DNA from: a candidate division WOR-3 bacterium
GTDB taxonomy: Bacteria > Hydrothermota > Hydrothermia > Hydrothermales > Hydrothermaceae
Direction: 5' to 3'
NCBI GenBank assembly: GCA_039803745.1
Contig: JBDRZD010000025.1
Span: 11,891 to 27,146 of the forward strand
DNA length: 15,256 nucleotides
In this document: in pieces, positions 1 to 15,037 of the stretch
How the letters are laid out: each line of letters begins with the position of its first letter
Numbering within the stretch: position 1 is the stretch's first letter
The notes under the pieces: model-generated
Database searches by the model: none
Seen by the model: the letters and a program-made list of their open reading frames with translations, nothing else
Told to the model about the DNA's origin: nothing
Position numbers and translations under genes: made by a program

Positions 1-1921
1 GGATACAGGTGTTGACGCATTCCATCCTGCATTGGAGGGGAAATTTGAAGGTCACTGGTATGATGCAGTGAATAATCAAACATTTCCTTATGATGACCAT
101 GGTCATGGAACCTTTACAATGGGAATAATAATTGGAGGCGATGGTTTAGGACCTTTTCCTGATGATATAGGTGTTGCACCTGATGCAAAATTTGTTTCAT
201 GCAAGTGTTTTGACCAGAATGGCTCGACATCTGCTTCCAGAATTCATACCTGTTTTCAAAAACATGGAGAATGGAAAGCAAATGGAGTTGATATAAAGGC
301 TATAAACAATTCATGGGGTGCAACTAATACAACTTCTTTAGAATTCTGGCAGGATTGTTTGAATTTAAGGAATTTAAAAATTGTTCCTGTGTTTGCTATA
401 GGAAATAATGGACCCGGTTCTGGAACAGCAAGCACTCCCGGTAATTTTCCAATTGTTATAGGAGTTGGTGTATCTGATCAAAATGATAATGTTCCATCCT
501 ATTCATCAAGGGGACCTGCACCAAATCAATATCCATGGAATGACCCAGTATATTGGCCAAGACCTGACTGGAACAGAACAAAGCCTGATATTGTTGCACC
601 CGGTCAAAATATAAGATCATCATGGCCGGGTGGTGGTTACCAGTATTCAACATGCACATCTACTGCAACTCCTCATGTAACAGGAGGAATTTTAATTTTA
701 TTCCAGAAGAATCCCTATTTAACTTTTAAAAAGGTTTATTCATTGCTTCTTGATTATGCAAGAAGACCCTCTCAGGGTTCTCCTTATCCAAATAATAGTT
801 ATGGATGGGGAATTTTAAATATATATCAATCACTTTTACATACTCCATCACCATGGGAGACACATGACTGCGGTGAAATTACCCTTGTGGTATCAAATAT
901 GGGTGTGTTCGGGGAATGCTCATATCCTCATGGTTCGCTATATCATCTTTATGCAGGTAGTTTTTCAATTGGAACAGTGATGCCCTATGTTATTGATAGA
1001 TATTATTATGATGAAGACTGGATACCAATTGATGGGGTTTATATGTATGAGCCTTATCCACCTTTCTGTGAATATTCCTATGCTTCTTATAGTGATTCTG
1101 GTGGTGAGGAGATAAAAGGGATAATAGTAAAACAAAAGGGATTCACGTTCAGTGAGGAGAATTTAAGGGATTTTGTAATAATTGAATATATTTTAAAAAA
1201 TACCTCATCACAGCCTGTCTTCGGTATTTATTCGGGCATTTTCCTTGACTGGGATATAAATCATTCAAACTTTGCTGATTATGGTGGAACAGATTCTTCA
1301 AGGAGTATGGCTTACCAATATTATGGAAATATATATATGGGTTCTGCAATTTTGTATCCTGAAAGGGGAAGTCCTTTGATAAGAAATCTTTCAATTATAA
1401 GGAATGAGGAATATGTTTATCCCTATTTAGATTTGCCTGATTCAATTGCAATTAAATTTTTAAACGGGACACTTTCTTTTCCCTATGCAGACAGTGCTTC
1501 TGATTTATCAACCTGTATTTCTGCTGGTCCATTTAATATAAATCCAGGGGATTCTATAAAAGTTGCATTTGCAATTGCTGGTGGGCTTAGTTTAGATTCT
1601 TTAAAAGAGCATATTGATTCTGCCTATTCAAGATATTTAAGTATCGGCTTTTCTGAAAGACCTTCTTTTGATAAAGAAGATTTAAGAATATATCCGCTTA
1701 TTTCTTCAGGGAAAATTTATGTTGATTACAATTTTAGTTATTTAATTAAAGGAAAGATTTCAATATACAATGTTTATGGCTCAAAATTAAAAATTTTGAA
1801 TTTTGAAGGAAAGAAAGGGTTAAAGGAGATAGATTTAAGGGATTTTGCTTCAGGAATATATTTCATAGAAATTAAAACGCCTTTTTTGAAAAAGAAAAAT
1901 AAATTTTTAATCTTAAAATGA
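1..1921 (+). CDS. S8 (subtilisin-family) serine peptidase with a central beta-rich domain and a T9SS type-A-like C-terminal sorting domain; 5'-truncated by the window edge
   Basis: The frame is open from nt 2 (DTGVDAFHPALEG), giving the catalytic Asp motif DTG, so the TTG at 32 is not the real start. His motif HGHGTFTMG (His at 104-106); oxyanion Asn in FAIGNNG; SSRGP and KPDIVAPG; Ser motif CTSTATPHV (Ser at 659-661); YGWG. C-terminal IYP...IYNVYG...SGIYF...KFLILK. Confidence 0.93.
   Translation, partial: DTGVDAFHPALEGKFEGHWYDAVNNQTFPYDDHGHGTFTMGIIIGGDGLGPFPDDIGVAPDAKFVSCKCFDQNGSTSASRIHTCFQKHGEWKANGVDIKAINNSWGATNTTSLEFWQDCLNLRNLKIVPVFAIGNNGPGSGTASTPGNFPIVIGVGVSDQNDNVPSYSSRGPAPNQYPWNDPVYWPRPDWNRTKPDIVAPGQNIRSSWPGGGYQYSTCTSTATPHVTGGILILFQKNPYLTFKKVYSLLLDYARRPSQGSPYPNNSYGWGILNIYQSLLHTPSPWETHDCGEITLVVSNMGVFGECSYPHGSLYHLYAGSFSIGTVMPYVIDRYYYDEDWIPIDGVYMYEPYPPFCEYSYASYSDSGGEEIKGIIVKQKGFTFSEENLRDFVIIEYILKNTSSQPVFGIYSGIFLDWDINHSNFADYGGTDSSRSMAYQYYGNIYMGSAILYPERGSPLIRNLSIIRNEEYVYPYLDLPDSIAIKFLNGTLSFPYADSASDLSTCISAGPFNINPGDSIKVAFAIAGGLSLDSLKEHIDSAYSRYLSIGFSERPSFDKEDLRIYPLISSGKIYVDYNFSYLIKGKISIYNVYGSKLKILNFEGKKGLKEIDLRDFASGIYFIEIKTPFLKKKNKFLILK
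1682..1918 (+). other. T9SS/Por-type C-terminal sorting domain-like region of the S8 peptidase
   Basis: About 79 aa at the C-terminus with LRIYP, ISIYNVYG, LRDFASGIYFIEI and a Lys-rich terminal strand KKNKFLILK; matches the type-A CTD pattern. Confidence 0.8.
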
Positions 1922-2902
1922 ACCTTTTAAAGGATAAACAGTATAGGGTGAAGCATCCAAATTTGTTTTTATTCCCTTTTTGAAAAGTGAAATTGCCCTT
2001 ATTCCTACCATGCAGGCATTATCAGAAGCATAAATTTTTGAAGGGAAATAAACTTCTTTAAAATTTTCCTTAAATTTTTCCCTTAATCTTTCATTTGCAG
2101 AAACACCACCAACAACTGCTATCTTTTCTATTCCTAAAATTTCTTTTGCCTCAATTGTTTTTTCAAGTAAACTATCAACAATTGCTTCCTGGTATGATGC
2201 GCATATATCTTCCAGATTTTCTCTTATAAATTTTTTTGGTCTTTTTTTAACAAAATAAAGTAAAGATGTTTTTAATCCTGAAAAACTGAAAGAAAATACT
2301 GGTGTTTTTGCTCTTGGAAAATTAAATTTTTCAGGATTACCTTTTTCAGCCATTTCAGCAATTCTTGCACCACCGGGATATGGAAAACCAAGAATTTTTG
2401 CCCCTTTATCAAAAGCCTCACCTGCTGCATCATCAAGTGTTCCTCCAAGATATTTTATTTCTTCATTTTCTTCCATTAAAAAGAATTCAGTATGACCACC
2501 TGATGCAAGTAAAAATAAAATTGGTGGTTTTAAAAAAGGAAAGTCAAGAAATATTGAATATAAATGGGCTTCAAGATGGTCAACTCCGATAAATGGTTTT
2601 TTATAAAAATATGCAAGAGATTTTGCAAAGGTAAAACCAACTAAAAGAGAAACAATGAGACCAGGCCCCTGTGTTGCTGAAATTATGTCAACTTCCTCAA
2701 TATTTATTTTTGAAATTTCAATTGCTGTTTTTAAACTTGGTAAAATTAATGCAGTATGAATTCTTGAGGCAATTTCAGGGACAACACCTCCATAATCTCT
2801 ATGAAGAATATGAACATTTGTTATATTTGCTAAAACCTTATTGTCTTCTAAAATTGCACAGGATGTCTCATCACAGGAAGTTTCAAAGGCTAATACTTTC
2901 AT
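1913..2902 (-). CDS. tsaD: tRNA N6-adenosine threonylcarbamoyltransferase TsaD (Kae1/YgjD family)
   Basis: ETSCDET, YGGVVPEIASRIH, GPGL, HLEAH, SGGHT, DDAAGEAFDK, FSFSGLKT, GGVSAN and SDNA motifs. The start is placed at the ATG at 2902 (MKVLAFETS) rather than 2920 because it matches the family N-terminus and lies 6 nt after a TATAAT. Confidence 0.97.
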   Translation of the reverse strand: MKVLAFETSCDETSCAILEDNKVLANITNVHILHRDYGGVVPEIASRIHTALILPSLKTAIEISKINIEEVDIISATQGPGLIVSLLVGFTFAKSLAYFYKKPFIGVDHLEAHLYSIFLDFPFLKPPILFLLASGGHTEFFLMEENEEIKYLGGTLDDAAGEAFDKGAKILGFPYPGGARIAEMAEKGNPEKFNFPRAKTPVFSFSFSGLKTSLLYFVKKRPKKFIRENLEDICASYQEAIVDSLLEKTIEAKEILGIEKIAVVGGVSANERLREKFKENFKEVYFPSKIYASDNACMVGIRAISLFKKGIKTNLDASPYTVYPLKGSF

Positions 2903-2938
2903 TTTTTTATTATAAACCATTATAATTAAATTATGAAA
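2897..2938. promoter_or_regulatory. Bidirectional sigma70-type promoter between tsaD and gmd, probably giving leaderless transcripts
   Basis: Minus-strand TATAAT (ATTATA at 2909-2914) lies 6 nt before the tsaD ATG, and plus-strand TATAAT (2921-2926) lies 6 nt before the gmd ATG. No Shine-Dalgarno on either side; the region has dyad symmetry. Confidence 0.7.
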
Positions 2939-3982
2939 ACAAAAAAAGCAATAATAACAGGTATTACAGGTCAGGATGGTTCATACCTTGCTGAATTCTT
3001 GCTTTCAAAGGGGTATGAAGTTCATGGAATAATAAGAAGGTCTTCAACAACATCAACAACAAGAATTGAACATATATATGTTGATCCCCATACACCCGGT
3101 GCAAAACTTTTCCTTCATTATGGAGACCTTTCAGATTCTTCATATTTAACAAATTTAATTTATGAGATAAAACCCGATGAAATTTATAATCTTGGTGCAC
3201 AGAGTCATGTAAAGGTTAGTTTTGATTTGCCTGAATATACAGGAGATATAACAGGTTTGGGAGCAGTGAGGATTTTAGAGGCAATTAAAAAAAGTGGTAT
3301 TTCCTGCAAATTTTATCAGGCTTCTTCATCAGAAATGTTTGGTTTCGCTTCTCCTCCTCAAAATGAAAATTCTGGATTTTTTCCAAGAAGCCCTTATGCA
3401 GCAGCAAAACTTTATGCATACTGGATGACAAGAATATACAGGGATGCTTATGGAATATTTGCAGTAAATGGTATACTTTTCAACCATGAATCACCAAGAA
3501 GAGGAGAAACATTCGTTACAAGAAAAATAACCCTCGGAGTCGTAAATATTCTTAAGAAAAAACAGGAATTTTTATATATGGGAAATATAGAAGCAAAAAG
3601 GGATTGGGGTTATGCACCTGAATACATTGAAGTTATGTGGAAGATGCTACAGAAGGAAAAGCCTGATGATTATGTGATAGGAACAGGTGAATGGCATTCT
3701 GTTAAAGAATTTCTTGAAGAGGCTTTCTCCTATGTTGGACTTAAATGGGAAAAATATGTGAAGATAGATAAAGAATATTTAAGACCTATTGATGTTGAAA
3801 ATTTAAGGGCAGATTTTTCAAAGGCAAAAAAGGAACTTGGATGGGAACCAAAAATTAAATTCAAAGAACTTGTTAAAATAATGATGGATGCAGAAATGAG
3901 AATGAATGGGCTTGAGCCAGTAGGTGAAGGAGATAGAATTTTAAAGGAAAAATTTCCAGATAGATGGTGGATTCGCGATTGA
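2933..3982 (+). CDS. gmd: GDP-mannose 4,6-dehydratase
   Basis: [30 protein letters not shown], catalytic SPYAAAK (YxxxK), [21 protein letters not shown]. Confidence 0.97.
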
Positions 3983-4014
3983 AATTGAAAATATTTTTAT
4001 TATATAATTAAAAT
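3979..4014 (+). promoter_or_regulatory. sigma70-type promoter for rpmB (probably leaderless)
   Basis: TTGAAA (3979-3984), 18-nt spacer, TATAAT (4003-4008), 6 nt, ATG (4015); no SD. Confidence 0.7.
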
Positions 4015-4200
4015 ATGGCAAAATGTTATAAGTGTGGAAAGCATACACAGATAGGAAGGAATGTATCCCATGCCCATAATGTTACAAGGAGATTTTTTAA
4101 ACCAAATTTACATAAAATAAGGATAAAGGAAGGAAATAAAATAAAAAGAGTTTATGTTTGCACAAAGTGTTTAAGGAAAGTAAATAAGGTAATTGGCTAA
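4015..4200 (+). CDS. rpmB: 50S ribosomal protein L28, zinc-binding (C+) form
   Basis: 61 aa basic protein with CYKCGK...GRNVSHAHN.TRRFFKPNL...VCTKCLR; two CxxC pairs. Confidence 0.97.
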   Translation: MAKCYKCGKHTQIGRNVSHAHNVTRRFFKPNLHKIRIKEGNKIKRVYVCTKCLRKVNKVIG

Positions 4201-4849
4201 AAAATTTTCATCTTTCTGGATAATTTATAAAGATATAATCCTTGAAATAAAAACAAAAGAAATAATAATACCTTTTTTAATTTTTTCCTTTTTATTGATA
4301 GTTTTTATTTCTTTTTCTATTCAAAACAGAGAATTTTCACCTTTTATTTTCTGGCTTTCCTTTCTTTTTTCAGGAATAATAAGTCTTTCAAGATATACTG
4401 TTAAAGAAACAAATGGCGGTTTTAAAGGATTGCTTATTTTACCAATTGACAGGGAAAGCATTTTTATTGGAAAAACAATTTCTCTAACCCTTTTTTTATT
4501 CTTATCAGGAATATTCCTTTACTTTTTATTTTTAATTTTTTTGAATTTCCCTTTTTCATTAAAAATATTTCTTTATTTTTTAATAATTTTATTTTTTACA
4601 TCCTTTTCCTTTTCTTCTCTTGGCATTTTAATCTCATTTTTAACAATGGGAACAAGAGCAAAAGAATTTTTCTTACCCCTTATTATAATACCTCTTTTTA
4701 TTCCTCCTTTTATCTCTGCAATCTCACTTACAAATAAAGTTTTATCAAATGAAAAATTTCTTTCCCCTTATCTTTATATTTTAATCTTTTTTTCACTCCT
4801 TTATTTTTTCTTAAACCAGGTTCTTTTTGAAGAAATTTTGATTGACTGA
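4193..4849 (+). CDS. ccmB: CcmB-like heme exporter / ABC-2-type permease
   Basis: About 6 TM helices; KDIILEIKTKE, FWLSFLFSG, E.NGGFKGLLILPIDRESIFIGK and TRAKEFFLPLIIIPLFIP match CcmB motifs. TTG start overlaps the rpmB stop by 8 nt. Confidence 0.8.
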   Translation: MAKKFSSFWIIYKDIILEIKTKEIIIPFLIFSFLLIVFISFSIQNREFSPFIFWLSFLFSGIISLSRYTVKETNGGFKGLLILPIDRESIFIGKTISLTLFLFLSGIFLYFLFLIFLNFPFSLKIFLYFLIILFFTSFSFSSLGILISFLTMGTRAKEFFLPLIIIPLFIPPFISAISLTNKVLSNEKFLSPYLYILIFFSLLYFFLNQVLFEEILID

Positions 4850-4850
4850 A

Positions 4851-5576
4851 ATGTTAAGCATGACAGGATACGGATATGCAAGAAGATATACAAAATATGG
4901 GAATTTTGAAGTTGAAATAATCTCTTTAAATTCAAGGGAAGTTGAAATAACCCTTTCAGGAAATAGGGATATAATTGGACTTGAAAGGGAGATAAGAAAA
5001 ATTATTAAAAAGTATTTAAAAAGGGGGAAGATAAAGATTAAGTTTTATTTTCCACCACCAGAAGATTATGTTGTTGATGAAAGGAAACTTAAAAGACTTA
5101 TAGATAGTATAAAAAAATTTGAAAAAAGAGAAAAATTAAACATATATTTTGATAATGCTGATATTTTAAGGGAAATTTTCATAAAAAAGGAGAATTTAGA
5201 GAAAAAGAAAAAGATATTCTTAAAAATTCTTGAGATTGCAGTAAAAAGACTTTTAAAATTCAGAAAAGAAGAGGGAGAGAATTTAAAAAAAGCACTTCTT
5301 GAAGAGGTTAAAAAACTTGAAAATTTATTAAATAATTTAAATGACGAAAAATGTAAAGAGGAAAAAATAAGAATTTTATCTCATGTTGAATCAATTATAA
5401 AAACTATAAATTCAAAAGGGTCATGGGGTAAAAAAATTGATTTTTTAGGGCAGGAAATTTTAAGGGAAGGAAATACAATTTCTCAGAAATCAGAAAATTT
5501 AGAAAATATAAATATTGCAATTGAAATAAAACTATGTGCAGAAAATATAAGAGAGATAGCAAGAAATATAGAATAA
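4851..5576 (+). CDS. yicC: YicC/YloC-family endoribonuclease (short form, 241 aa)
   Basis: N-terminal MLSMTGYG, SLNSR, L.RGKI; R.EEG..L; C-terminal EE..R..SH, GKKIDFLGQEILREGNT..K, E.IRE...NIE. ATG at 4851 is 1 nt after the ccmB stop (the ORF track's TTG at 4842 is an alternative). Confidence 0.9.
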   Translation: MLSMTGYGYARRYTKYGNFEVEIISLNSREVEITLSGNRDIIGLEREIRKIIKKYLKRGKIKIKFYFPPPEDYVVDERKLKRLIDSIKKFEKREKLNIYFDNADILREIFIKKENLEKKKKIFLKILEIAVKRLLKFRKEEGENLKKALLEEVKKLENLLNNLNDEKCKEEKIRILSHVESIIKTINSKGSWGKKIDFLGQEILREGNTISQKSENLENINIAIEIKLCAENIREIARNIE

Positions 5577-7040
5577 TTATAATTTTCTTTCTATATAAGG
5601 AAAAAATGGATTTTCTGGATATTTTAAAATTATTTCCTTATAAATTTCCTTTGCTTTATTTTTATCAATTTTTTCATATATTTCACCAATTTCAATAAGT
5701 GCTTTTACTTTAATTATATCCGGCAAATCACCTTCTTTAATTTTTTCAAAAAGTTTCAAACTCTCATTAATTTTATTTTTTTTCTTTAAATAAACTCCAT
5801 AAAGATAAGAATATAAAAAATCAATTTTTTCTCCTTTTAGATTTATTTCAACATCTTCTCCCTTAAAAATTTTATAATGGATAGGAACATAATCGTTTAA
5901 ATTTTCTTTAAAATTTTTTAAAATATAGGACAAGTAAAGAACTTCTGGTATTCTTTTATCTTTTGGAAAATTTGAAATAAATTTAAATGAGAGTGTTTCA
6001 GCCTTATCAAAATTCTTTGAAAAGTAATGTGTAAGGAAAAGATAAAAACTTGCATCAGAACTTTTTATCTCTTTTAAAATTTCAAAATTTTCTTTAAAAT
6101 TTCCAGTCAAAATATTGTAAAGACCCATAACCTCCAATTTTTTGTTTCTATCTTTTATCTTATCAATATTTTTCTTTGCCTCTCCCATTTCATTTTTCTC
6201 AAGATATATTTTTGAAAGAGAGTAGTATATCTCATCATTAAATTTTTCAACTTTATCCTTTATAATTTCATAAATATCTTTTGCCTTTTCCTTTTCCCCT
6301 TTAATTTCAAAAGCCTTTGCCCTATAATATAAAATTAATGGGTCATTTTCCTTTTCAGTGAATCTTATTATATAATCTGGATTTCTTTCAAGATATTCTT
6401 CTAATTTTTTTTCATCCTTTGATTTTATATAATAATTTATTCCTTTTTCATAAAGATTTTTTGAAATTGCTATCTCTGCAAGAACTGGGTAAAATTCCTC
6501 TTCTTGAAATTCATTTTCAATTGTTTCAAATGGTATATTTTTTGAAATTCTTTTGATTTCAACTTTTATAATTTCCTTATTTTCAAAATTTTTTAGTTCT
6601 TTAAAAGCATTCTTATAATCATTTTTTTCAATATAAATTCTATAAAGCATATCAGAAAATAATTTTTTATCCTTATTTTTTTCCCTTTCATATTTTATAA
6701 ATTTTTCTGCAAGTTCATAAAATTTTAAATCAATCATTGAAAAGAGTATCCTTTTTATTTCTTCTTTTTCAAAAAATAAATCAATTGAATCAATAAGAGA
6801 ATAAAATTTTCTATTTGTCAAATATCTTGAAATTAAAAAATCAGAATAGAATATATAATTTTTTCCAAGTTCACAAATTGCAACTTTTGATATTTTATAA
6901 AGTTTTTCAAATTCTTTATTATTAAGATATTTATCCCTTAACTCAAAATAAAATATTCTATATTTTTTTGGCTCTTCTAAAAATAGTTTCTCTTTTATTT
7001 CTATTTGATTTAAAAATATTAGAATAAAGAAGAAAGCCAT
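5577..7040 (-). CDS. Tetratricopeptide-repeat / alpha-solenoid protein with a short hydrophobic N-terminus
   Basis: TPR-like units LYYRAKAFEIKGEKEKAKDIYE, IYYSLSKIYLEKNEMGEAK and ALIEIGEIYE..DKNKAKEIYKEIILKYPENP; N-terminal FFFILIFL. Overlaps the upstream gene by 22 nt, so the start is somewhat uncertain. Confidence 0.8.
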   Translation of the reverse strand: MAFFFILIFLNQIEIKEKLFLEEPKKYRIFYFELRDKYLNNKEFEKLYKISKVAICELGKNYIFYSDFLISRYLTNRKFYSLIDSIDLFFEKEEIKRILFSMIDLKFYELAEKFIKYEREKNKDKKLFSDMLYRIYIEKNDYKNAFKELKNFENKEIIKVEIKRISKNIPFETIENEFQEEEFYPVLAEIAISKNLYEKGINYYIKSKDEKKLEEYLERNPDYIIRFTEKENDPLILYYRAKAFEIKGEKEKAKDIYEIIKDKVEKFNDEIYYSLSKIYLEKNEMGEAKKNIDKIKDRNKKLEVMGLYNILTGNFKENFEILKEIKSSDASFYLFLTHYFSKNFDKAETLSFKFISNFPKDKRIPEVLYLSYILKNFKENLNDYVPIHYKIFKGEDVEINLKGEKIDFLYSYLYGVYLKKKNKINESLKLFEKIKEGDLPDIIKVKALIEIGEIYEKIDKNKAKEIYKEIILKYPENPFFPYIERKL

Positions 7041-7684
7041 TCAAATAAGAGGAAATGGATTCTCCCAATTAAAAGTGAAACACGTGCCATTATTGTATAG
7101 CCAAAGGATGCACCAAATGCTATCATGATAAAGGTTATTCCAATTCTTGAAAAAATGCCAAGTGCACCTTTATGTTCTTTTGAAAAGAAAAAGTAAAATA
7201 AAGTTGAAATTGTTGCAACAATTATTATTAAGTTGTTAAAACTTGAAAATAAATCTTTGAAAGTTAAAGGTAAAATTGTTGCATGAATCTGGGGAACTAT
7301 GTAACCTTGAAGTGAACCTGTTACACCAAGTCCTGCTGCCATTCCAACTGTGAATGCTATTGCCCATCTTGAAAGCCATGCAACTGGCGGTATAAACCTT
7401 AAAAGCATACATATTGATAAAAATATTGGAATGAATAAAATCCACTGTTCGGGTGTAAAATGAAGCCACATCTTCCAGAATCCATAAGTTTTAAAAACAT
7501 TTTTAAATGGTCCTAAAATTTTTGGTTCAACATCAAAAAACCATAAATATAAAAACCAGAAACTTGCAGCGCTGCCTACATATATATGTTCTGCAAATTT
7601 ATAAAATGGATTATCCTTATATAAAAAAGAAAATATTGCCAATGTTAATCCTGCTGCAATCCATAAAAATATTATATCTATCAT
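7019..7684 (-). CDS. Uncharacterised polytopic membrane protein (about 6 TM, internally triplicated hairpin)
   Basis: Six hydrophobic segments; FSFLYKDNPFYKFAEH motif; SD GAGGAG 7 nt upstream; ATGA overlap with the 273-aa gene. Confidence 0.85.
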   Translation of the reverse strand: MIDIIFLWIAAGLTLAIFSFLYKDNPFYKFAEHIYVGSAASFWFLYLWFFDVEPKILGPFKNVFKTYGFWKMWLHFTPEQWILFIPIFLSICMLLRFIPPVAWLSRWAIAFTVGMAAGLGVTGSLQGYIVPQIHATILPLTFKDLFSSFNNLIIIVATISTLFYFFFSKEHKGALGIFSRIGITFIMIAFGASFGYTIMARVSLLIGRIHFLLFEWLSSLF

Positions 7685-8502
7685 TTTATTCTCCTCAATG
7701 CTATAAAACCAATATTCCCAATTATTATAAATATTAAAATTATAACATGTATAATTGTTTGGGCAGTCATTCCAGAATATGCAAATCCTCTTCTTTTTAA
7801 TAAGTTTTCATAATCAGCAGCCCCTCTTAAACCACCTATTAATCCTTCAATCTGTTTTGCCTGGAAATAGGGATATAAATCAGGAGCAACAACTGCTGTT
7901 GAAGTTAGAATTATTTTTTGTCCATATCTTGCCTGAGCAAATTGAACCCAGTAATCTCCAACAGCACCTGCTTCAAATCCTATTAAAAGAGCAATATCAT
8001 TATAATTATGGACATTCTTCATAAGTGGTAATGAATCAATTGGTGTTCCCTTATAATCAACATCAAATACCATTCTTATTTCCTTTCCCATATTAAGCAT
8101 AACTGCTGCTATTCCAGGTCTATATCCAAGAAATACATAATCCCTTCCATATTCTTTTTTCATCTCTTTTGCTATTTTTTCAAGGGCAATCTGTCCTAAG
8201 GGAAGACCAAGTGGCCAGTGCCCCATCATTATCACTTTTAAATCTTTTTTAAAAAGATGAACAAGCATAACTTCAAGAAGGGGCTGTAATTCTGGCATAC
8301 TTGCTGCATCATAGTCTATTGAAATTAAAACTCTTGAACCAGTTGGCAATTTTTCTATAAATTCATAAGCATTTTTAACTTCTGGAAGTGCCTCAAATTC
8401 AAATCCCTTTTTAATTAAAAGAGGAATTGTAATAGATATAAAAACTAAAAGGTATATTATTCTTCTATCAATTTTTGAAATTTTTTCAAAAAATTCTTTC
8501 AT
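7681..8502 (-). CDS. Uncharacterised membrane-anchored protein (N- and C-terminal TM flanking an alpha/beta domain)
   Basis: TM at about aa 15-30 and aa 248-269; soluble domain with YGRDYVFLGY and YPYFQAKQIEGLIGGLRGAADYE; ATGA coupling on both sides. Confidence 0.85.
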   Translation of the reverse strand: MKEFFEKISKIDRRIIYLLVFISITIPLLIKKGFEFEALPEVKNAYEFIEKLPTGSRVLISIDYDAASMPELQPLLEVMLVHLFKKDLKVIMMGHWPLGLPLGQIALEKIAKEMKKEYGRDYVFLGYRPGIAAVMLNMGKEIRMVFDVDYKGTPIDSLPLMKNVHNYNDIALLIGFEAGAVGDYWVQFAQARYGQKIILTSTAVVAPDLYPYFQAKQIEGLIGGLRGAADYENLLKRRGFAYSGMTAQTIIHVIILIFIIIGNIGFIALRRIK

Positions 8503-9284
8503 TTCAAATATGTTCTTTCAATTCCAAGAATAATCCTTAATGCCATTGCTATTGCACCAAGTGAAATTCCTATAAATAGTCCTCTTTTTGCACCAAGTTG
8601 TGGAACATTCATTATCCAGTCAGAAAGCAGAGGCAATTTTGTTTTTAAGAAAATCCCTATTGGAAAGATAAGGATTAAGGAAATAATTGCAAGCCCAAAA
8701 AATAAAACTCTTTCATATATTGAAATTCTTGGAAGTGCTTCAAGAATACAAACTATTGCAATTAAAATGAATGTAACAGCAATAAAATATGGGGAAAAAT
8801 CCTCTCCTTTTGGAACCCTTCCAAGCATAACAATTCCTGCTGATATTAAAAGTAATGTTGCATTTAATCCCCTTGCCCTGAATGCCCTATAAGCAGCGGA
8901 TGCTATGAAAAATGCGAGAAGAGAAAACATTGTTGCCTGAAGTGGAACAAATACATATGTATAAAAATATCTCAAAAATGTTGAGGTTGGGGCAAAGGGA
9001 TTACCATGCTTTATTCCTGAATATATCCCCCATAGAAGTGTTATTATGAATGTTAAAAGTAAGGCAAAAGAATAAGGTGCTTCTTTTTCCTTTCTTTTAA
9101 TTTTTCTATAATGGTATGCAAGGAGTGAATCAATTCCAAGAATAAGGGTGAATCCCGAAACAATTATATACCAGTCATTGAATCTTTCCTGTAAACTTCC
9201 AAATGGTTCATGGGGAATAAATAAGGCAACTATTAATATGAATCCTGAAATAAAGGTTATAAAAAGTGGGACTCCTTTTTTCAT
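8499..9284 (-). CDS. Uncharacterised polytopic membrane protein (about 8 TM)
   Basis: Eight hydrophobic segments; PLQATMFSLLAFFIASAAYRAFR and AKRGLFIGISLG...LRIILGIER; upstream GAGGTG; ATGA overlaps on both sides. Confidence 0.85.
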   Translation of the reverse strand: MKKGVPLFITFISGFILIVALFIPHEPFGSLQERFNDWYIIVSGFTLILGIDSLLAYHYRKIKRKEKEAPYSFALLLTFIITLLWGIYSGIKHGNPFAPTSTFLRYFYTYVFVPLQATMFSLLAFFIASAAYRAFRARGLNATLLLISAGIVMLGRVPKGEDFSPYFIAVTFILIAIVCILEALPRISIYERVLFFGLAIISLILIFPIGIFLKTKLPLLSDWIMNVPQLGAKRGLFIGISLGAIAMALRIILGIERTYLK

Positions 9285-10411
9285 ATCACCTCAAAAAAGT
9301 TTTTCAAAAAGTGGAATAAGGGATTTTTTGTTAAAAATGCAATTGTTTCAAGTATAAGTCCTGCTATTACTATTATTATAAGAAGTGCCTTTACATAATC
9401 TTCACCTTTTATTGTTGCAAGTGATAGAGGGTCTCTTGTTAAATATGCGCTTGCTGCATACATCTCTTCACCTATCAGTGTATAATCTGTTGCTGCTATG
9501 AAAAAGGGAAGCTGGGTTACAGCAGTTGTTCCTGATATCTGTATTGCCCCTATTGAGTTTCCTGTTTCTGCAAGAATTAATGATTCTGCATAAAAATATC
9601 CCTGTAAAAATATTGCACCAGGACGCTCCCTTACCATTATTCCATCACAACCAGCAGCATATCCAAACTGGTCATAGGATAAAAAGAATACATTCCCCTC
9701 TTTATAAAGGTCTGGTCTTCCTGCTTCAATAAAACCTTCTTTAACTGTTTCCTGTGCTGCAACAAATACAACAGGGTCATAACAAGGAACTATGATATCA
9801 ACTTCATATTCACCTGCCTTTTTTGAAACCCTTTTTAAAATTGAAAGACCTGCAATTGTTGGTATCTCGGCAATTGTTCCAAGACCAAGAATAAAAAGAA
9901 GGGGTCTTCCAAGTTCTGTTGATCTACCAACTGCTTCATCTATTGCATCAAGTCCTGTTATCTTTCTTATAAACAGTTCCTCTTTTTTTGCTCTCCTGAC
10001 AAAATATAAAAGGAAAGCAAGTATGATTATAAGAAGAATCAAAACACTTGTTCTCTTTTTATGAAACCATTCTGCATGGGCAACTGCTACATTTGAGAAT
10101 TCACTATCACTCCATATTTCCCCTTTTATCGCCCTTATAAAATACCTGTATTTAACCTTATTTTTACAATTTGAATCAAGAAAATAATTTGTCCCCCTTG
10201 GTAAAATTTCAAGTGTTTCAGGTAAACTCCACTTTCCTTCAATTTCCTCTTGCCTGAAAATTATATAATTATCTATTATTGAATCAGAAGGTGAAAGTTC
10301 CCATTTTATTTCTATTTTTCCTCCTGCATCATTTGGATAATCATTTGCTTTAATATTTGAAGGGGGGAGAGGAGGAATATAGAGAAAGAGAAATAAAATT
10401 ATTTTTATCAT
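9281..10411 (-). CDS. Fibronectin type III domain + DUF6754-like membrane protein
   Basis: Short hydrophobic N-terminus; FN3 pattern at aa 13-110 (PP.N...I.IKW...Y.IFR...Y.D...Y.Y.IRA...SN); TM at about aa 123-138; domain with IRKI.GL.AIDEAVGR.TE.GRP, QFGYA, AESL..AE.G and QLPFF...DYTLIGEE.YAASAYL, recognised from memory as DUF6754-like; C-terminal TM. Confidence 0.8.
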   Translation of the reverse strand: MIKIILFLFLYIPPLPPSNIKANDYPNDAGGKIEIKWELSPSDSIIDNYIIFRQEEIEGKWSLPETLEILPRGTNYFLDSNCKNKVKYRYFIRAIKGEIWSDSEFSNVAVAHAEWFHKKRTSVLILLIIILAFLLYFVRRAKKEELFIRKITGLDAIDEAVGRSTELGRPLLFILGLGTIAEIPTIAGLSILKRVSKKAGEYEVDIIVPCYDPVVFVAAQETVKEGFIEAGRPDLYKEGNVFFLSYDQFGYAAGCDGIMVRERPGAIFLQGYFYAESLILAETGNSIGAIQISGTTAVTQLPFFIAATDYTLIGEEMYAASAYLTRDPLSLATIKGEDYVKALLIIIVIAGLILETIAFLTKNPLFHFLKNFFEVI

Positions 10412-10450
10412 AAGAAATTAATTATAATACAAACTAAAACTTTAAAACAA
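10412..10450 (-). promoter_or_regulatory. Putative sigma70 promoter for the five-gene membrane operon
   Basis: Minus strand: TTGTTT (10450-10445), 18-nt spacer, TATAAT (10426-10421), 9 nt, ATG (10411); no SD. Confidence 0.55.
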
Positions 10451-11453
10451 TTTTACCAAATACTTTTCTTTCTTCAATTAATCTATGTGCTTCCTGTGCC
10501 TTTTCAAAATTCAAAACTTTACTTATTGATATTTTTATAAATCCCTTTTTTACATATTCAAGTCCCTTTAAGAGATGCCTCCTTGTTCCCATCGTTGAAC
10601 CAATTATCTGAATCTGTCTGAAAAATACATGTCTTAAATCAATTCTTGCATCATAACCACTTGTTGCGCCACATATAACTATCTTTCCTCCCCAATTAAC
10701 TATTTTTATTAATTTCTCCCAGAATTCTTTTCCAGTATGGTCAAATATAATATCAATTTTTTCGCAAATATTCTTTAATTTTTTCTCCCAGTTATCTTCT
10801 GTATAGACAATCCCGTCATCAGCACCAAACCATTTTGCCCTCTCAATCTTTTCTTTATTTCCTGCTGTAACAAAAACATTGCATTTTATCATCTTTAAAA
10901 TCTGTATCAAATTTAAACTTACACCAGAACCTGCTGCCATAACAAGGCAGTTCATTCCTGGCTCAAGGTTTGCCTTTTCAACCATTTGAACTGCAGTTAA
11001 AAGTGCAAGCGGAATTGCTGCTGCTTCAACAAAGGAAATATTTTCAGGAATTAAAAATACATTTTCCTTTGGAACATTTATATATTCAGACTCTACACCC
11101 TGTGTTCTCTCACCAAAAATTTTATATTCCTTACATAAATTTTCGTTTCCTGAAATACATTTCTCGCATCTTCCACAAAAAATTGCAGGATATATTAAAA
11201 CCTTATCACCTTTCTTTATTCCTTCAACATTTTCTCCTATCTCTTCAACAATCCCTGCTGCATCTGCTCCAAGAACATGGGGAAATTTTAAAGAAAGCCC
11301 TGGAAGCCCTTTTCTTACCCATATGTCAAGATGATTTATTCCTGCTGCTTTAACCTTTATCCTTACTTCATTTGGTTTTAATTCTCTTAAAGGGATTTCA
11401 CCAATCTTTATTACTTCAGGAGGACCATTTTCATTTATATAAACTGCCTTCAT
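10434..11453 (-). CDS. MDR-superfamily zinc-binding alcohol dehydrogenase / quinone oxidoreductase-like protein
   Basis: VKAAGINHLD, PHVLGADAAG.V, structural-Zn cluster CGRCEKC...NLC (11133-11177), EAAAIP, AAGSGV nucleotide-binding loop, FGKIVL. TAATG overlap with the htpX stop. Confidence 0.92.
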   Translation of the reverse strand: MKAVYINENGPPEVIKIGEIPLRELKPNEVRIKVKAAGINHLDIWVRKGLPGLSLKFPHVLGADAAGIVEEIGENVEGIKKGDKVLIYPAIFCGRCEKCISGNENLCKEYKIFGERTQGVESEYINVPKENVFLIPENISFVEAAAIPLALLTAVQMVEKANLEPGMNCLVMAAGSGVSLNLIQILKMIKCNVFVTAGNKEKIERAKWFGADDGIVYTEDNWEKKLKNICEKIDIIFDHTGKEFWEKLIKIVNWGGKIVICGATSGYDARIDLRHVFFRQIQIIGSTMGTRRHLLKGLEYVKKGFIKISISKVLNFEKAQEAHRLIEERKVFGKIVLKF

Positions 11454-12400
11454 TATATTCTATGAGCCATCCTTTTTAAATAAAATATTCTTTTTTCAAT
11501 TGGGGGATGCGTGCTCCATAAATCAGCCCATAAATTTTCCAAATTTTCTAATTTATTTTTTAATGGTGAAACTATAAAAAGTGGAGAGATTGCTTTGTTG
11601 CCAATAGGTATTCCCTTTTGATTTAAATAAATCTTTTCAAGGGCATTTGCAAGAGAAATTGGGTTCCTTGTAAGTTCTGCAGAGGTTGCATCAGCAAGAT
11701 ACTCCCTGCTTCTTGATATTGCAAGGAAAACAAGTTTTGCAATTATTGGTGCAATTACTGCAAGTATCAAAACAATTAATAAGACTATTATATTTCCTCT
11801 TGCATAAACTCTTCTTCTTTTATCTTTAAATCTCAAATTTCTTAAAGCAATATCCGATAAAATTATTATTATTCCAAGTAAGGTTGCTGCAACTGTCATT
11901 GTCAAAATATCTCTATTTTTTATATGGGCAATTTCATGTCCTATAACTCCCTGCATTTCTTCCCTGTTTAAAATTCTTAAAAGACCCCTTGTTACAGCAA
12001 TTGATGAATTGTGAAGGTCTTTTCCTGTTGCAAAGGCATTTGGAATATCAGTTTCCACAATATAGACTTTTGGCATAGGAATACCTGCTGCTATTTTCAT
12101 TTCTTCAACAATATTTATAAGTCTTTTTTCTTCAAAAATTTCTGGATTTGCAGGTCTTGCTCCAATTGAATTTAAAACTATTTTATCCCCATATCTATAA
12201 GAAATAAAAGATTGTGCTCCTGAAATTAAAATTGCAACACTTGTTATAAAAGGAAATTTTATATACTCAGGAAATCCCAAAAAGATATTATCAATTAGAA
12301 AACCTAAAAGACCTGCAATTAAAATAAAAAATAGAATTAAAAATATTGTTTTTCTTATATTTTTTTTCTGTAAATCGTAAAAAGTAATTATCTCAGACAT
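11453..12400 (-). CDS. htpX: M48 family membrane zinc metalloprotease HtpX
   Basis: PNAFATG, IAVTRGLL, HEIAH (HExxH), SRSREYLAD, STHPPIEKRI; 4 TM helices; lies downstream of lemA. ATG at 12400 overlaps the lemA stop (TTG at 12403 is an alternative). Confidence 0.95.
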   Translation of the reverse strand: MSEIITFYDLQKKNIRKTIFLILFFILIAGLLGFLIDNIFLGFPEYIKFPFITSVAILISGAQSFISYRYGDKIVLNSIGARPANPEIFEEKRLINIVEEMKIAAGIPMPKVYIVETDIPNAFATGKDLHNSSIAVTRGLLRILNREEMQGVIGHEIAHIKNRDILTMTVAATLLGIIIILSDIALRNLRFKDKRRRVYARGNIIVLLIVLILAVIAPIIAKLVFLAISRSREYLADATSAELTRNPISLANALEKIYLNQKGIPIGNKAISPLFIVSPLKNKLENLENLWADLWSTHPPIEKRIFYLKRMAHRI

Positions 12401-12959
12401 CAAGACTTACTCGTGGCGTTTCCTTTTCCTCCGGTTTTTCTATTACAAAAAATTCAAATGCCTTGAAATTGAAAATGTTTGCAATTATATTTTTTGGAAA
12501 AACCTGTATAGAAGTATTGTATTTCATAACCATATCATTATAAAATTGCCTTGCAAAGGCTATCTTATTTTCAGTATTTGTTAGTTCTTCTTGAAGCATC
12601 ATAACATTCTGATTTGCCTTTAATTCTGGATATCTTTCAAAAAGGGCAAAAAGTCTTCCAAGAAACCCTGAAAGTTCTCCTTCTGCTTTTCCAATTTCTT
12701 TTAAATCACCTTTATCCCTTACACTAACAGCCTTTGTCCTTGCTTCAATAACCTTTGTTAATGTTTCCTTTTCATATTTCATATATCCTTTAACTGCTTC
12801 AACAAGGTTTGGAATTAAATCATGCCTTCTTTTTAACTGAACATCTATCTGACTCCATGCATTTTTTACCTGCATCCTTTCCCTTACAAGAGAATTGTAT
12901 ATAGAGATTAAGAAAATTACAATTAAAATTATAAGAACTACAAGAATTATTCCCATCAT
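12393..12959 (-). CDS. lemA: LemA family protein
   Basis: N-terminal TM; YNSLV, AWSQIDVQLKRRHDLIPNLV, YPELKAN, ENKIAFARQFYN, FP.NIIA. SD AAGGAGG at 12970-12964; start is the ATG at 12959 (ATGA coupling) or 12956. Confidence 0.97.
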   Translation of the reverse strand: MMGIILVVLIILIVIFLISIYNSLVRERMQVKNAWSQIDVQLKRRHDLIPNLVEAVKGYMKYEKETLTKVIEARTKAVSVRDKGDLKEIGKAEGELSGFLGRLFALFERYPELKANQNVMMLQEELTNTENKIAFARQFYNDMVMKYNTSIQVFPKNIIANIFNFKAFEFFVIEKPEEKETPRVSLDV

Positions 12960-15037
12960 TTTTCCTCCTTTTTGATTTTTATTCTTGCATCAACTACGAC
13001 TGCATCTTTTTTATATACAAAAACAGGGTTTAAATCAATCTCCTCAATCTCTTCTATTTCCTTAACCATCTGTGATGTTCTCAAAATAATTTCTTTTATT
13101 TTATTTATACTTGTTCCTTTAAGCAAATTAAATCCCTTTATACTTTTAATCATCTTAATTGCTTCTCTTGGAAAGATAGGAACAATCCCAAAACTTACAT
13201 CCTTAATTATTTCCACATATATTCCACCAAGACCAAACATCAAAAGTGGTGGGAAAAAATTTGTTCTTTTTGCTCCAATTATAATTTCTTTACCAGGCTT
13301 TGCCATCTTTTGTATTATTACTCCTTTAAATCCTTCTTTTAAAAATTTCTCCTTCATTTTTTTAAATTTCTCAATTGCTTCTTTTTCAGAGTTTATATTT
13401 AAAATAACACCACCTTTTGCCATTTTATGAATTACTTTATCAGCAACAACTTTCATCACAATTGGAAAATTTATCCTTTTACATATTTTATAAACATCCT
13501 TTTCATTCTCAGCATATTCCCATTCAACAGCTTTAAATCCATAAAATTCAAGAATTTTTAGAGAATCCTGAGGAAGTAAAAATCCATCCTCATTTTTAAA
13601 AGAATTATCCAAAATTTCTTTTGCTTTTTCTTTTTCCACTTTAAATATAATTTCCTTTTCCTCTTTTATGCCCTTTTTTAATTCTGAATACTCATAAAGA
13701 CCAGAAACAGCATTTATTGCATCCTCTGGAAATGTATAAAAAGGAACATTTTCCCTTTTTAAAATTTCAACAGGTTTTAATACGCTTTTTTCTCCCAAGA
13801 ATGCAGGAATCAAAGGTTTTTTATTATTTTTAGCATATTTTGCCATCCTCTTTGCAACCTCTTCCATATCTATCATTTTTTGTGGAACCATCATTGATAT
13901 AACAGCATCAACATTTTTATCCTTTAAAAGATTTTTCATAACCCATTCGTATCTTTCAGCATCAGCATCTCCTATTAAATCAAAGGGATTCCCTAAGGAT
14001 GCATAAGGTGGAACCTTTTCTTTTAATTTTTCATAAGTTTTTCTATCAATTTTTGCAAGTCTTAATCCCCTTTTAATACATTCATCGGTTGCAATTATTC
14101 CTGTTCCACCTGCATTTGTTATTATTGCAACCCTATTCCCCTTTGGAAGTGGTTGAGATATTAATGCAAGTGCTTTAACAAGCATCTCTTCAAGTGAATA
14201 AACCCTTAAAATGCCTGCTTTTTTAAAAAGTGCTTCATATATTTCATCAATTCCTGCAATTGCTCCTGTATGGGATGAAACAGCCCTTGCACCTTCAGGT
14301 GTTCTCCCGACTTTTAAAACAATAACAGGTTTTTTCTTTGTTGTTTCCCTTGCAATTTTAAAAAATTCTTCACCCCTTAAAATTCCTTCAATATATAAAA
14401 GTATTATCTCTGTTTCAGGGTCATCTTTGAAATAAGAGAGGGCATCAATCTCATCAACATCAACCTTATTACCAATACTTAAAATCTTTGAAAAACCAAT
14501 TCCCTTTTCCCTTGCATGATCAAGAAGGGAAACACATATTGCTCCTGATTGTGAAACAAAACTCACTTTCCCCCTTTGAGGCATTGGGGTTGCAAAAAAT
14601 GTATTTAATCTTACATTTTGAGAAGTATTGATTACACCGAGACAATTGGGTCCAACGATCCTTATATTATATTTTTTACCAATTTCTTTAATTTTTTCTT
14701 CAAGAATTTCGCCTTCTTCTCCAATTTCCTTGAATCCTGCTGTTATTATTATAACTGCCCTTATTCCCTTTTTACCGCATTCCTCTAAAACAAAAGGAAC
14801 AATCCTTGAAGGAGTTGTTATAACTGCAAGGTCAATATTGTCCTCTATTTCAAGAACACTTTTATAAGATTTATAACCAAGAACATAGTCAGCGTTTGGA
14901 TTAACAGGGAAAAAGGCACCCTCAAATCCTGATTCTATCATGCTTTTAAATGTTTGATATGCTAAACTTTTTGGATCCCTTGATGCCCCAATTATTGCAA
15001 CCTTTTTCGGCTTAAAAAATAAATCAATTACATTCAT
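12956..15037 (-). CDS. ADP-forming acyl-CoA synthetase (acetate-CoA ligase family), fused alpha-beta form, no GNAT domain
   Basis: CoA-binding IIGAS...PVNP, GPNCLG, SQSGA, phospho-His SHTGAIAG (His at 14270-14272), NAGG.G, NPFDL.GDA; ATP-grasp region VMKV...HK..GGV, FGLGGIYVE, DLNP, VVDARI. Confidence 0.93.
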   Translation of the reverse strand: MNVIDLFFKPKKVAIIGASRDPKSLAYQTFKSMIESGFEGAFFPVNPNADYVLGYKSYKSVLEIEDNIDLAVITTPSRIVPFVLEECGKKGIRAVIIITAGFKEIGEEGEILEEKIKEIGKKYNIRIVGPNCLGVINTSQNVRLNTFFATPMPQRGKVSFVSQSGAICVSLLDHAREKGIGFSKILSIGNKVDVDEIDALSYFKDDPETEIILLYIEGILRGEEFFKIARETTKKKPVIVLKVGRTPEGARAVSSHTGAIAGIDEIYEALFKKAGILRVYSLEEMLVKALALISQPLPKGNRVAIITNAGGTGIIATDECIKRGLRLAKIDRKTYEKLKEKVPPYASLGNPFDLIGDADAERYEWVMKNLLKDKNVDAVISMMVPQKMIDMEEVAKRMAKYAKNNKKPLIPAFLGEKSVLKPVEILKRENVPFYTFPEDAINAVSGLYEYSELKKGIKEEKEIIFKVEKEKAKEILDNSFKNEDGFLLPQDSLKILEFYGFKAVEWEYAENEKDVYKICKRINFPIVMKVVADKVIHKMAKGGVILNINSEKEAIEKFKKMKEKFLKEGFKGVIIQKMAKPGKEIIIGAKRTNFFPPLLMFGLGGIYVEIIKDVSFGIVPIFPREAIKMIKSIKGFNLLKGTSINKIKEIILRTSQMVKEIEEIEEIDLNPVFVYKKDAVVVDARIKIKKEEK

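Follow-up and report, generated by a model that had tools for sequence, protein, structure and literature searches.

A conserved four-gene membrane cassette

We analysed a 15,256-nucleotide stretch of DNA (the window) from a candidate division WOR-3 bacterium (GenBank assembly GCA_039803745.1, contig JBDRZD010000025.1, positions 11,891 to 27,146 of the forward strand), the minus strand of which carries four consecutive genes for membrane proteins that we call subunits A, B, C and D (Table 1). Both A and C have a soluble domain between two transmembrane (TM) helices, and an earlier note on this DNA had proposed that these two proteins are distant paralogues with their domains on opposite sides of the membrane. 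Our preferred reading, to which we assign a probability of roughly 65%, is that A and C are subunits of an unstudied conserved four-gene membrane module, that they face opposite sides of the membrane, and that they share no detectable sequence kinship.

Table 1. Features of the cassette in the window and of related genes elsewhere in the genome. Positions are those of the window unless another contig is named; ORF, open reading frame; TPR, tetratricopeptide repeat.
Feature	Position	Strand	Remarks
Subunit A, 376 amino acids	9281..10411	minus	leader, FN3, TM1, DUF6754 alpha/beta domain, TM2; ORF
A, FN3 domain, residues 12-114	10070..10378	minus	read as outside the cell membrane
A, TM1, helix 118-143, hydrophobic core 120-138	9983..10060	minus	hydropathy and AlphaFold2 model
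A, DUF6754 alpha/beta domain, residues 144-341	9389..9982	minus	read as cytoplasmic; conservation, model, charge bias
A, TM2, residues 342-360	9332..9388	minus	hydropathy 2.83
Subunit B, 261 amino acids	8499..9284	minus	polytopic membrane protein; ORF; no family
Subunit C, 273 amino acids	7681..8502	minus	TM1, Rossmann-like domain, TM2; ORF; no Pfam or NCBIfam family
C, TM1, helix 13-30	8413..8466	minus	conserved D12-R13-R14 ahead of the helix; hydropathy and model
C, six-unit beta-alpha Rossmann-like domain, residues 36-239	7786..8397	minus	read as periplasmic
C, TM2, helix 240-272	7687..7785	minus	invariant polar Q248, H252 and N263, then RRxK tail
Subunit D, 221 amino acids	7019..7684	minus	polytopic membrane protein; ORF; no family
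TPR gene, 487 amino acids	5577-7040	minus	downstream of D
Second cassette (L083), A, 362 amino acids	contig C36, 2167-3255	plus	
Second cassette, B, 205 amino acids	contig C36, 3258-3875	plus	
Second cassette, C, 273 amino acids	contig C36, 3878-4699	plus	
Second cassette, D, 207 amino acids	contig C36, 4699-5322	plus	
PF13941 actin-fold ATPase ('MutL/GlmL' family), 608-609 amino acids	contig C17 (L085), 4924-6753	minus	single gene
Homologue of the 374-amino-acid soluble protein	contig C11 (L086), 1501-2622	minus	no Pfam family

In the window, the genes of the cassette overlap by 4 nucleotides at every A-B-C-D junction. The helix-domain-helix layout that the earlier note had described for the 376- and 273-residue proteins is real, as hydropathy, Pfam and structure models agree: hydrophobic segments occupy residues 120-138, 171-189 and 342-360 of A and residues 15-33 and 250-268 of C. 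Residues 112-361 of A match the Pfam family DUF6754 (PF20539) with 359.2 bits against a cut-off of 27. The same match is present in 32 of 32 aligned relatives, about 80 columns of which are invariant, mostly within the DUF6754 domain, and 7930 of 8000 scored candidates were related to A at E<=0.001. The family of C is likewise large (1355 relatives in one search and 4660 representatives at E<=0.001), and C itself has no Pfam or NCBIfam match at E<=1. Neither Pfam nor NCBIfam yielded a relative of B or D, and the PDB held none for B. When the PDB was searched by sequence with the profiles of A, B and C, the only matches of A were to FN3 domains, and neither B nor C had a significant one. A weak match of B to DUF373 (E 0.017) was seen in one of 31 family members and was dropped.

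Using the A profile, we retrieved 78 loci from species genomes, and 65 of these contain a complete A-B-C-D run on the same strand and in the same order. Eleven of the others are cut by a contig end within the cassette, one (L068) is interrupted by a run of N, and one (L035) reads ABDC on account of an over-long ORF call. The record titles of the loci name Poribacteria, Zixiibacteriota, Stahlbacteria, Edwardsbacteria, Eisenbacteria, Ignavibacteriales and others. Genes on either side of the cassette are not related between one locus and another, and at least two A genes, mostly in tandem cassettes, are found at 16 of the 78. A-B-C-D is a fixed, translationally coupled gene set, and the genome of the window, 1.67 Mb in size, contains a second, diverged copy of it (Table 1). 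The window carries all four families in the canonical order on one strand; nothing in its DUF6754 match (359 bits), gene order or 4-nucleotide overlaps distinguishes it from other members, and it is one more copy of a catalogued DUF6754 module, not a new kind. A full-text search of the literature found no paper that names DUF6754 or PF20539.

B and D are not related to each other by hhalign (P 0.3, over 19 columns only), which leaves the notion of a duplicated two-gene unit, with B and D as a second pair of paralogues, unsupported, and we rejected it. The TPR gene that overlaps D by 22 nucleotides was discarded as a cassette member, as an iterated search over the 78 loci matched the window alone. 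An apparent fusion of DUF6754 to Peptidase_S49 (795 amino acids, L068 5821-8205, plus strand) had looked like an independent hint about topology and was also set aside, its parts being joined only across the run of N.

The soluble domains of A and C are predicted to face opposite sides of the membrane

To derive the topology of the two proteins, lysine and arginine residues (K+R) were counted in the flanks of the TM helices of 334 near-full-length C-family members and 214 DUF6754 proteins. In the C family, the flanks on the side of the termini are richer in K+R in 320 proteins, poorer in 11 and tied in 3. On average, the 15 residues ahead of TM1 contain 3.65 K+R and those behind it 1.62; for TM2, the figures are 3.85 in the tail that follows and 1.86 in the preceding flank. 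Taken helix by helix, the N-side flank of TM1 is the richer one in 305 of the 334 proteins and the C-side flank in 6, while for TM2 the C-side flank is richer in 277 and the N-side flank in 27. Both termini of C are thus on the K+R-rich side, that is, inside, and its six-unit Rossmann-like domain is on the other side, in the periplasm.

The bias of the A family runs the other way, with the domain-side flanks richer in K+R in 209 of 214 proteins, poorer in one and tied in four. Mean K+R rises from 2.15 ahead of TM1 to 4.28 behind it, and falls from 2.14 ahead of TM2 to 0.91 behind it. The C-side flank of TM1 is richer in 195 proteins (the N-side flank in 2), and the N-side flank of TM2 is richer in 185 (the C-side flank in none). 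The DUF6754 domain side being K+R-rich, the domain is placed inside, which agrees with the hydrophobic leader, found within the first 70 residues of 119 of 120 A homologues, and with an FN3 domain that precedes TM1 and is exported. A thus exports its FN3 domain and retains the very conserved alpha/beta domain, framed by its two TM helices, on the K+R-rich, cytoplasmic side. The soluble domains of A and C are therefore very probably on opposite sides of the membrane, as predicted from charge bias, and this part of the earlier interpretation is supported computationally.

A different arrangement would follow if residues 171-189 of A formed a third TM helix, as most of the DUF6754 domain would then lie outside, on the same side as the domain of C. 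This stretch reaches a hydropathy of 1.88 in a 19-residue window and falls into a region of the model where the predicted local distance difference test (pLDDT) score of the block is 65-67. However, strongly basic segments border it on both sides (eight K/R among residues 139-170; K190, R191, K194 and K195 immediately following), one of its own residues is acidic and conserved, and AlphaFold2 models it as a strand and the start of a helix within the domain. In addition, the K+R bias around the last TM helix of A, which is never reversed, fits a cytoplasmic domain. Given the basic flanks and the model, we read residues 171-189 as a buried element and consider a same-side arrangement very unlikely.

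No sequence method relates A to C

The proposal that A and C are distant paralogues found no support in any of the sequence tests. The best BLASTP match between the two proteins has an E value of 6.7. Comparison of the family profiles with hhalign gave a probability of 1.4% for alignments of 32 sequences each, and when the alignments were enlarged to 345 C-family and 215 A-family sequences (numbers of effective sequences, Neff, 4.6 and 4.4), the sole match was a TM helix at 2.9%. At low stringency, and with the input confined to the soluble domains, hhalign produced a collinear alignment of 158 columns with a P-value of 0.39; its score of 12.7 was lower than that of a reversed control (14.5) and was reached or exceeded by 58 of 60 controls in which blocks of 10 columns had been shuffled. 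Within this genome, at E<=10, the C profile found the two C genes only and PF20539 the two A genes only, and none of 32 C-family members gave a DUF6754 match at E<=10 in Pfam.

Besides the shared layout, the earlier note had pointed to four collinear motif echoes. All eight strings occur where it had placed them; their similarity does not rise above chance. Chained collinearly, the best four 8-residue windows score 76, compared to 77.4 +/- 5.6 for a shuffled C domain, and 306 of 500 shuffles score as high, while the best single 8-residue window (score 21) is matched by 442 of 500. Few of the echoed residues are conserved in both families: L244 of A with L125 of C and, in the last motif, I313 with I222, A319-A320 with A228-A229, and Y323 with Y231, of which the A-A pairing needs a gap of one residue. 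The second C copy of this genome lacks the GHWP motif, reading LTLNP in its place, and keeps S-x-D-Y-D-A-S and G-G-x-K-G-A-A-E-Y-E. The residues that follow strand 1 differ in kind between the two proteins (S61-x-D63-x-D65 in C, G176-L177-G in A).

Folds of the two domains

AlphaFold2 models C with confidence (mean pLDDT 92, predicted template modelling score 0.86), as a helix at residues 13-30, six beta-alpha units within residues 57-234 and a helix at residues 240-272. With its repeated beta-alpha units, parallel sheet and matches to solved folds, the domain is a Rossmann-like three-layer alpha/beta/alpha structure. The PDB matches found with Foldseek are generic Rossmann-like ones only, the best having an E value of 2e-4, and the ESM Atlas returned 30 unnamed clusters for the C domain, none of which has a Pfam family.

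For A, the quality of the model varies (mean pLDDT 71). It is good in the FN3 part, which folds into the expected beta-sandwich, and in the TM helix, fair in residues 190-250 and poor in residues 150-190 (50-67). Residues 251-316 have a pLDDT below 50 despite being the most conserved stretch of the family. The match list of a structure search with this model was filled by FN3 domains, and a search of the ESM Atlas with the A domain, PF20539 excluded, gave no usable match; structures of A and C themselves are absent from the Atlas. A complex prediction of A residues 112-376 with C, performed without folded controls, gave an ipSAE interface score of 0.00 in two runs, which speaks neither for an interaction nor against one.

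An alternative reading makes A and C ancient paralogues. A TM-Rossmann-like-TM subunit would have been duplicated and one copy inverted, as its flanking charges were redistributed and it acquired an exported domain at the N terminus, and sequence similarity would since have decayed beyond detection. Such a history would fit (i) the shared gross build, with a collinear order of helix alpha0, six beta-alpha units and a TM helix and with similar strand-start spacings, (ii) the constant occurrence of A and C within one operon, (iii) their opposite charge bias, (iv) the last motif, where both families conserve I, A-A and Y when one gap is permitted, and (v) the collinearity of the relaxed profile alignment across 158 columns. 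A build of one TM helix, six beta-alpha units and another TM helix would, in our view, be the generic look of doubly wound alpha/beta domains and not evidence of duplication. Considering the outcome of the sequence tests, we regard ancient paralogy as unlikely, and the full scenario, in which one copy of a common ancestor was flipped so that homologous soluble domains came to lie on both membrane faces, as marginally less probable still. We know of no described system in which whole extramembrane domains form the inverted pair. Mirror-image paralogues would, if true, represent an unusual route of membrane-protein evolution, one that is unsupported here.

An actin-fold ATPase and a 374-amino-acid protein co-occur with the cassette

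The presence of DUF6754 was compared with that of two other families across a sample of 151 genomes from the phylum. Of these, 141 contain PF20539, 138 the actin-fold ATPase family PF13941 and 138 a soluble protein of 374 amino acids; all three are missing from 10 of 10 genomes of one genus (g26), and PF13941 occurs without DUF6754 in none of the 151. In the genome studied here, the ATPase and 374-residue protein genes are unlinked to the cassettes (Table 1). Elsewhere, a gene for a protein of 374 or 375 amino acids adjoins the ATPase gene (L042) or is separated from it by one gene (L078), these two copies being 67% identical, and the order ATPase, 374-residue protein gene, A recurs in several families (G058 C62, G053 C95, G043 C3 and G005 C127, and also L042). 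The link between the cassette, the ATPase and the 374-residue protein is suggestive only.

Variation within the cassette and neighbouring genes

The window copy of B has eight hydrophobic segments compared to six in the family consensus. At 261 amino acids, it is longer than both the consensus (218 positions) and the second copy in the genome (205 amino acids), and it seems to carry an insert with additional hydrophobic segments. Large soluble-domain inserts are also present in some C-family proteins (P0284 and P0389 among the representatives): the soluble domain of a 643-residue member contains HEAT repeats (E 4e-64), and an 838-residue member has a CARDB-like insert (E 1e-6), in which no single stretch is above threshold and which therefore lends the predicted topology weak support.

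A TPR gene different from the one in the window overlaps the end of the PF13941 ATPase gene on contig C17 (L085 3671-4930, minus strand), and the two TPR proteins are not similar (BLASTP E 0.55). The remaining genes of the window, at positions 10434-15037 (minus strand) and 2-5576, look like ordinary housekeeping genes. A zinc-type alcohol dehydrogenase among them is confirmed by a Pfam match. The others were named from their translations alone and comprise an HtpX-like protease, a LemA-like protein, an ADP-forming acyl-CoA synthetase-like protein, a subtilisin-like protease cut by the start of the window, a TsaD-like protein and a GDP-mannose dehydratase-like protein.

Weighing the evidence

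The reading of A and C as sequence-unrelated subunits on opposite membrane faces has to be set against several observations that count against it. The topology is based on the positive-inside rule only. The profiles used to compare the two families are shallow (Neff 4.4-4.8), and the relaxed domain-only alignment does pair the first two of the motif echoes. The secondary-structure elements of the two domains (a helix, six beta-alpha units and a TM helix) are collinear and the first three beta-alpha units are very similar in length: the strand-start spacings in the two domains are 32/35, 33/35, 25/24, 23/20 and 20/18 residues, and C has a single insertion of 25 residues. The low pLDDT of residues 150-190 and 251-316 of A leaves half of the DUF6754 domain without a confident model, and a fold and strand order shared with C are possible. 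As for the wider system, DUF6754 occurs without a PF13941 match in three genomes (G023, 87% complete; G059 and G144, each 94% complete), and the co-occurrence of the families is statistically weak because their absence traces to a single loss event within the phylum, in genus g26.

Comparison with known systems

Pairs of paralogous membrane proteins with inverted topologies are known, and include the small multidrug resistance (SMR) pairs EbrAB and YdgEF/MdtIJ, as well as RnfA/RnfE and NqrD/NqrE. A and C resemble these pairs in that a single operon encodes both subunits and their K+R biases are opposite. In the known pairs, however, the homology of the partners is evident and the inversion concerns the membrane domain itself, whereas A and C have no detectable homology, their opposite orientation is a prediction, and the inverted object would be a soluble domain between two TM helices. 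Another of the closest known systems is MT0777 of Methanothermobacter (PDB 1kjn), a functionally uncharacterised protein from structural genomics. ABC (ATP-binding cassette)-type importers, with an outer binding protein, two membrane subunits and a cytoplasmic energiser, offer an analogy only: the module differs from them in having no match to an ABC ATPase, P-loop or permease family, and the ATPase associated with it has an actin fold (PF13941).

A model of the module

We propose the following model of the module as a whole, which we regard as tentative and rather doubtful in its entirety. A, B, C and D would together form one inner-membrane complex, of which B and D may constitute the membrane core. 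C would offer an outward-facing periplasmic ligand pocket at the C-terminal ends of its strands, lined by S61, D63, D65, E71 and R128, and its TM2 would contribute a helix with the conserved polar residues Q248, H252 and N263. On the other face, the cytoplasmic domain of A might dock the separately encoded PF13941 actin-fold ATPase and its 374-residue partner. The module could in this manner link processes on one face of the membrane to those on the other, with a role in uptake or in envelope work.

The cassette represents a four-protein membrane unit that is very widespread and strongly conserved, with conserved domains predicted on both faces of the membrane.

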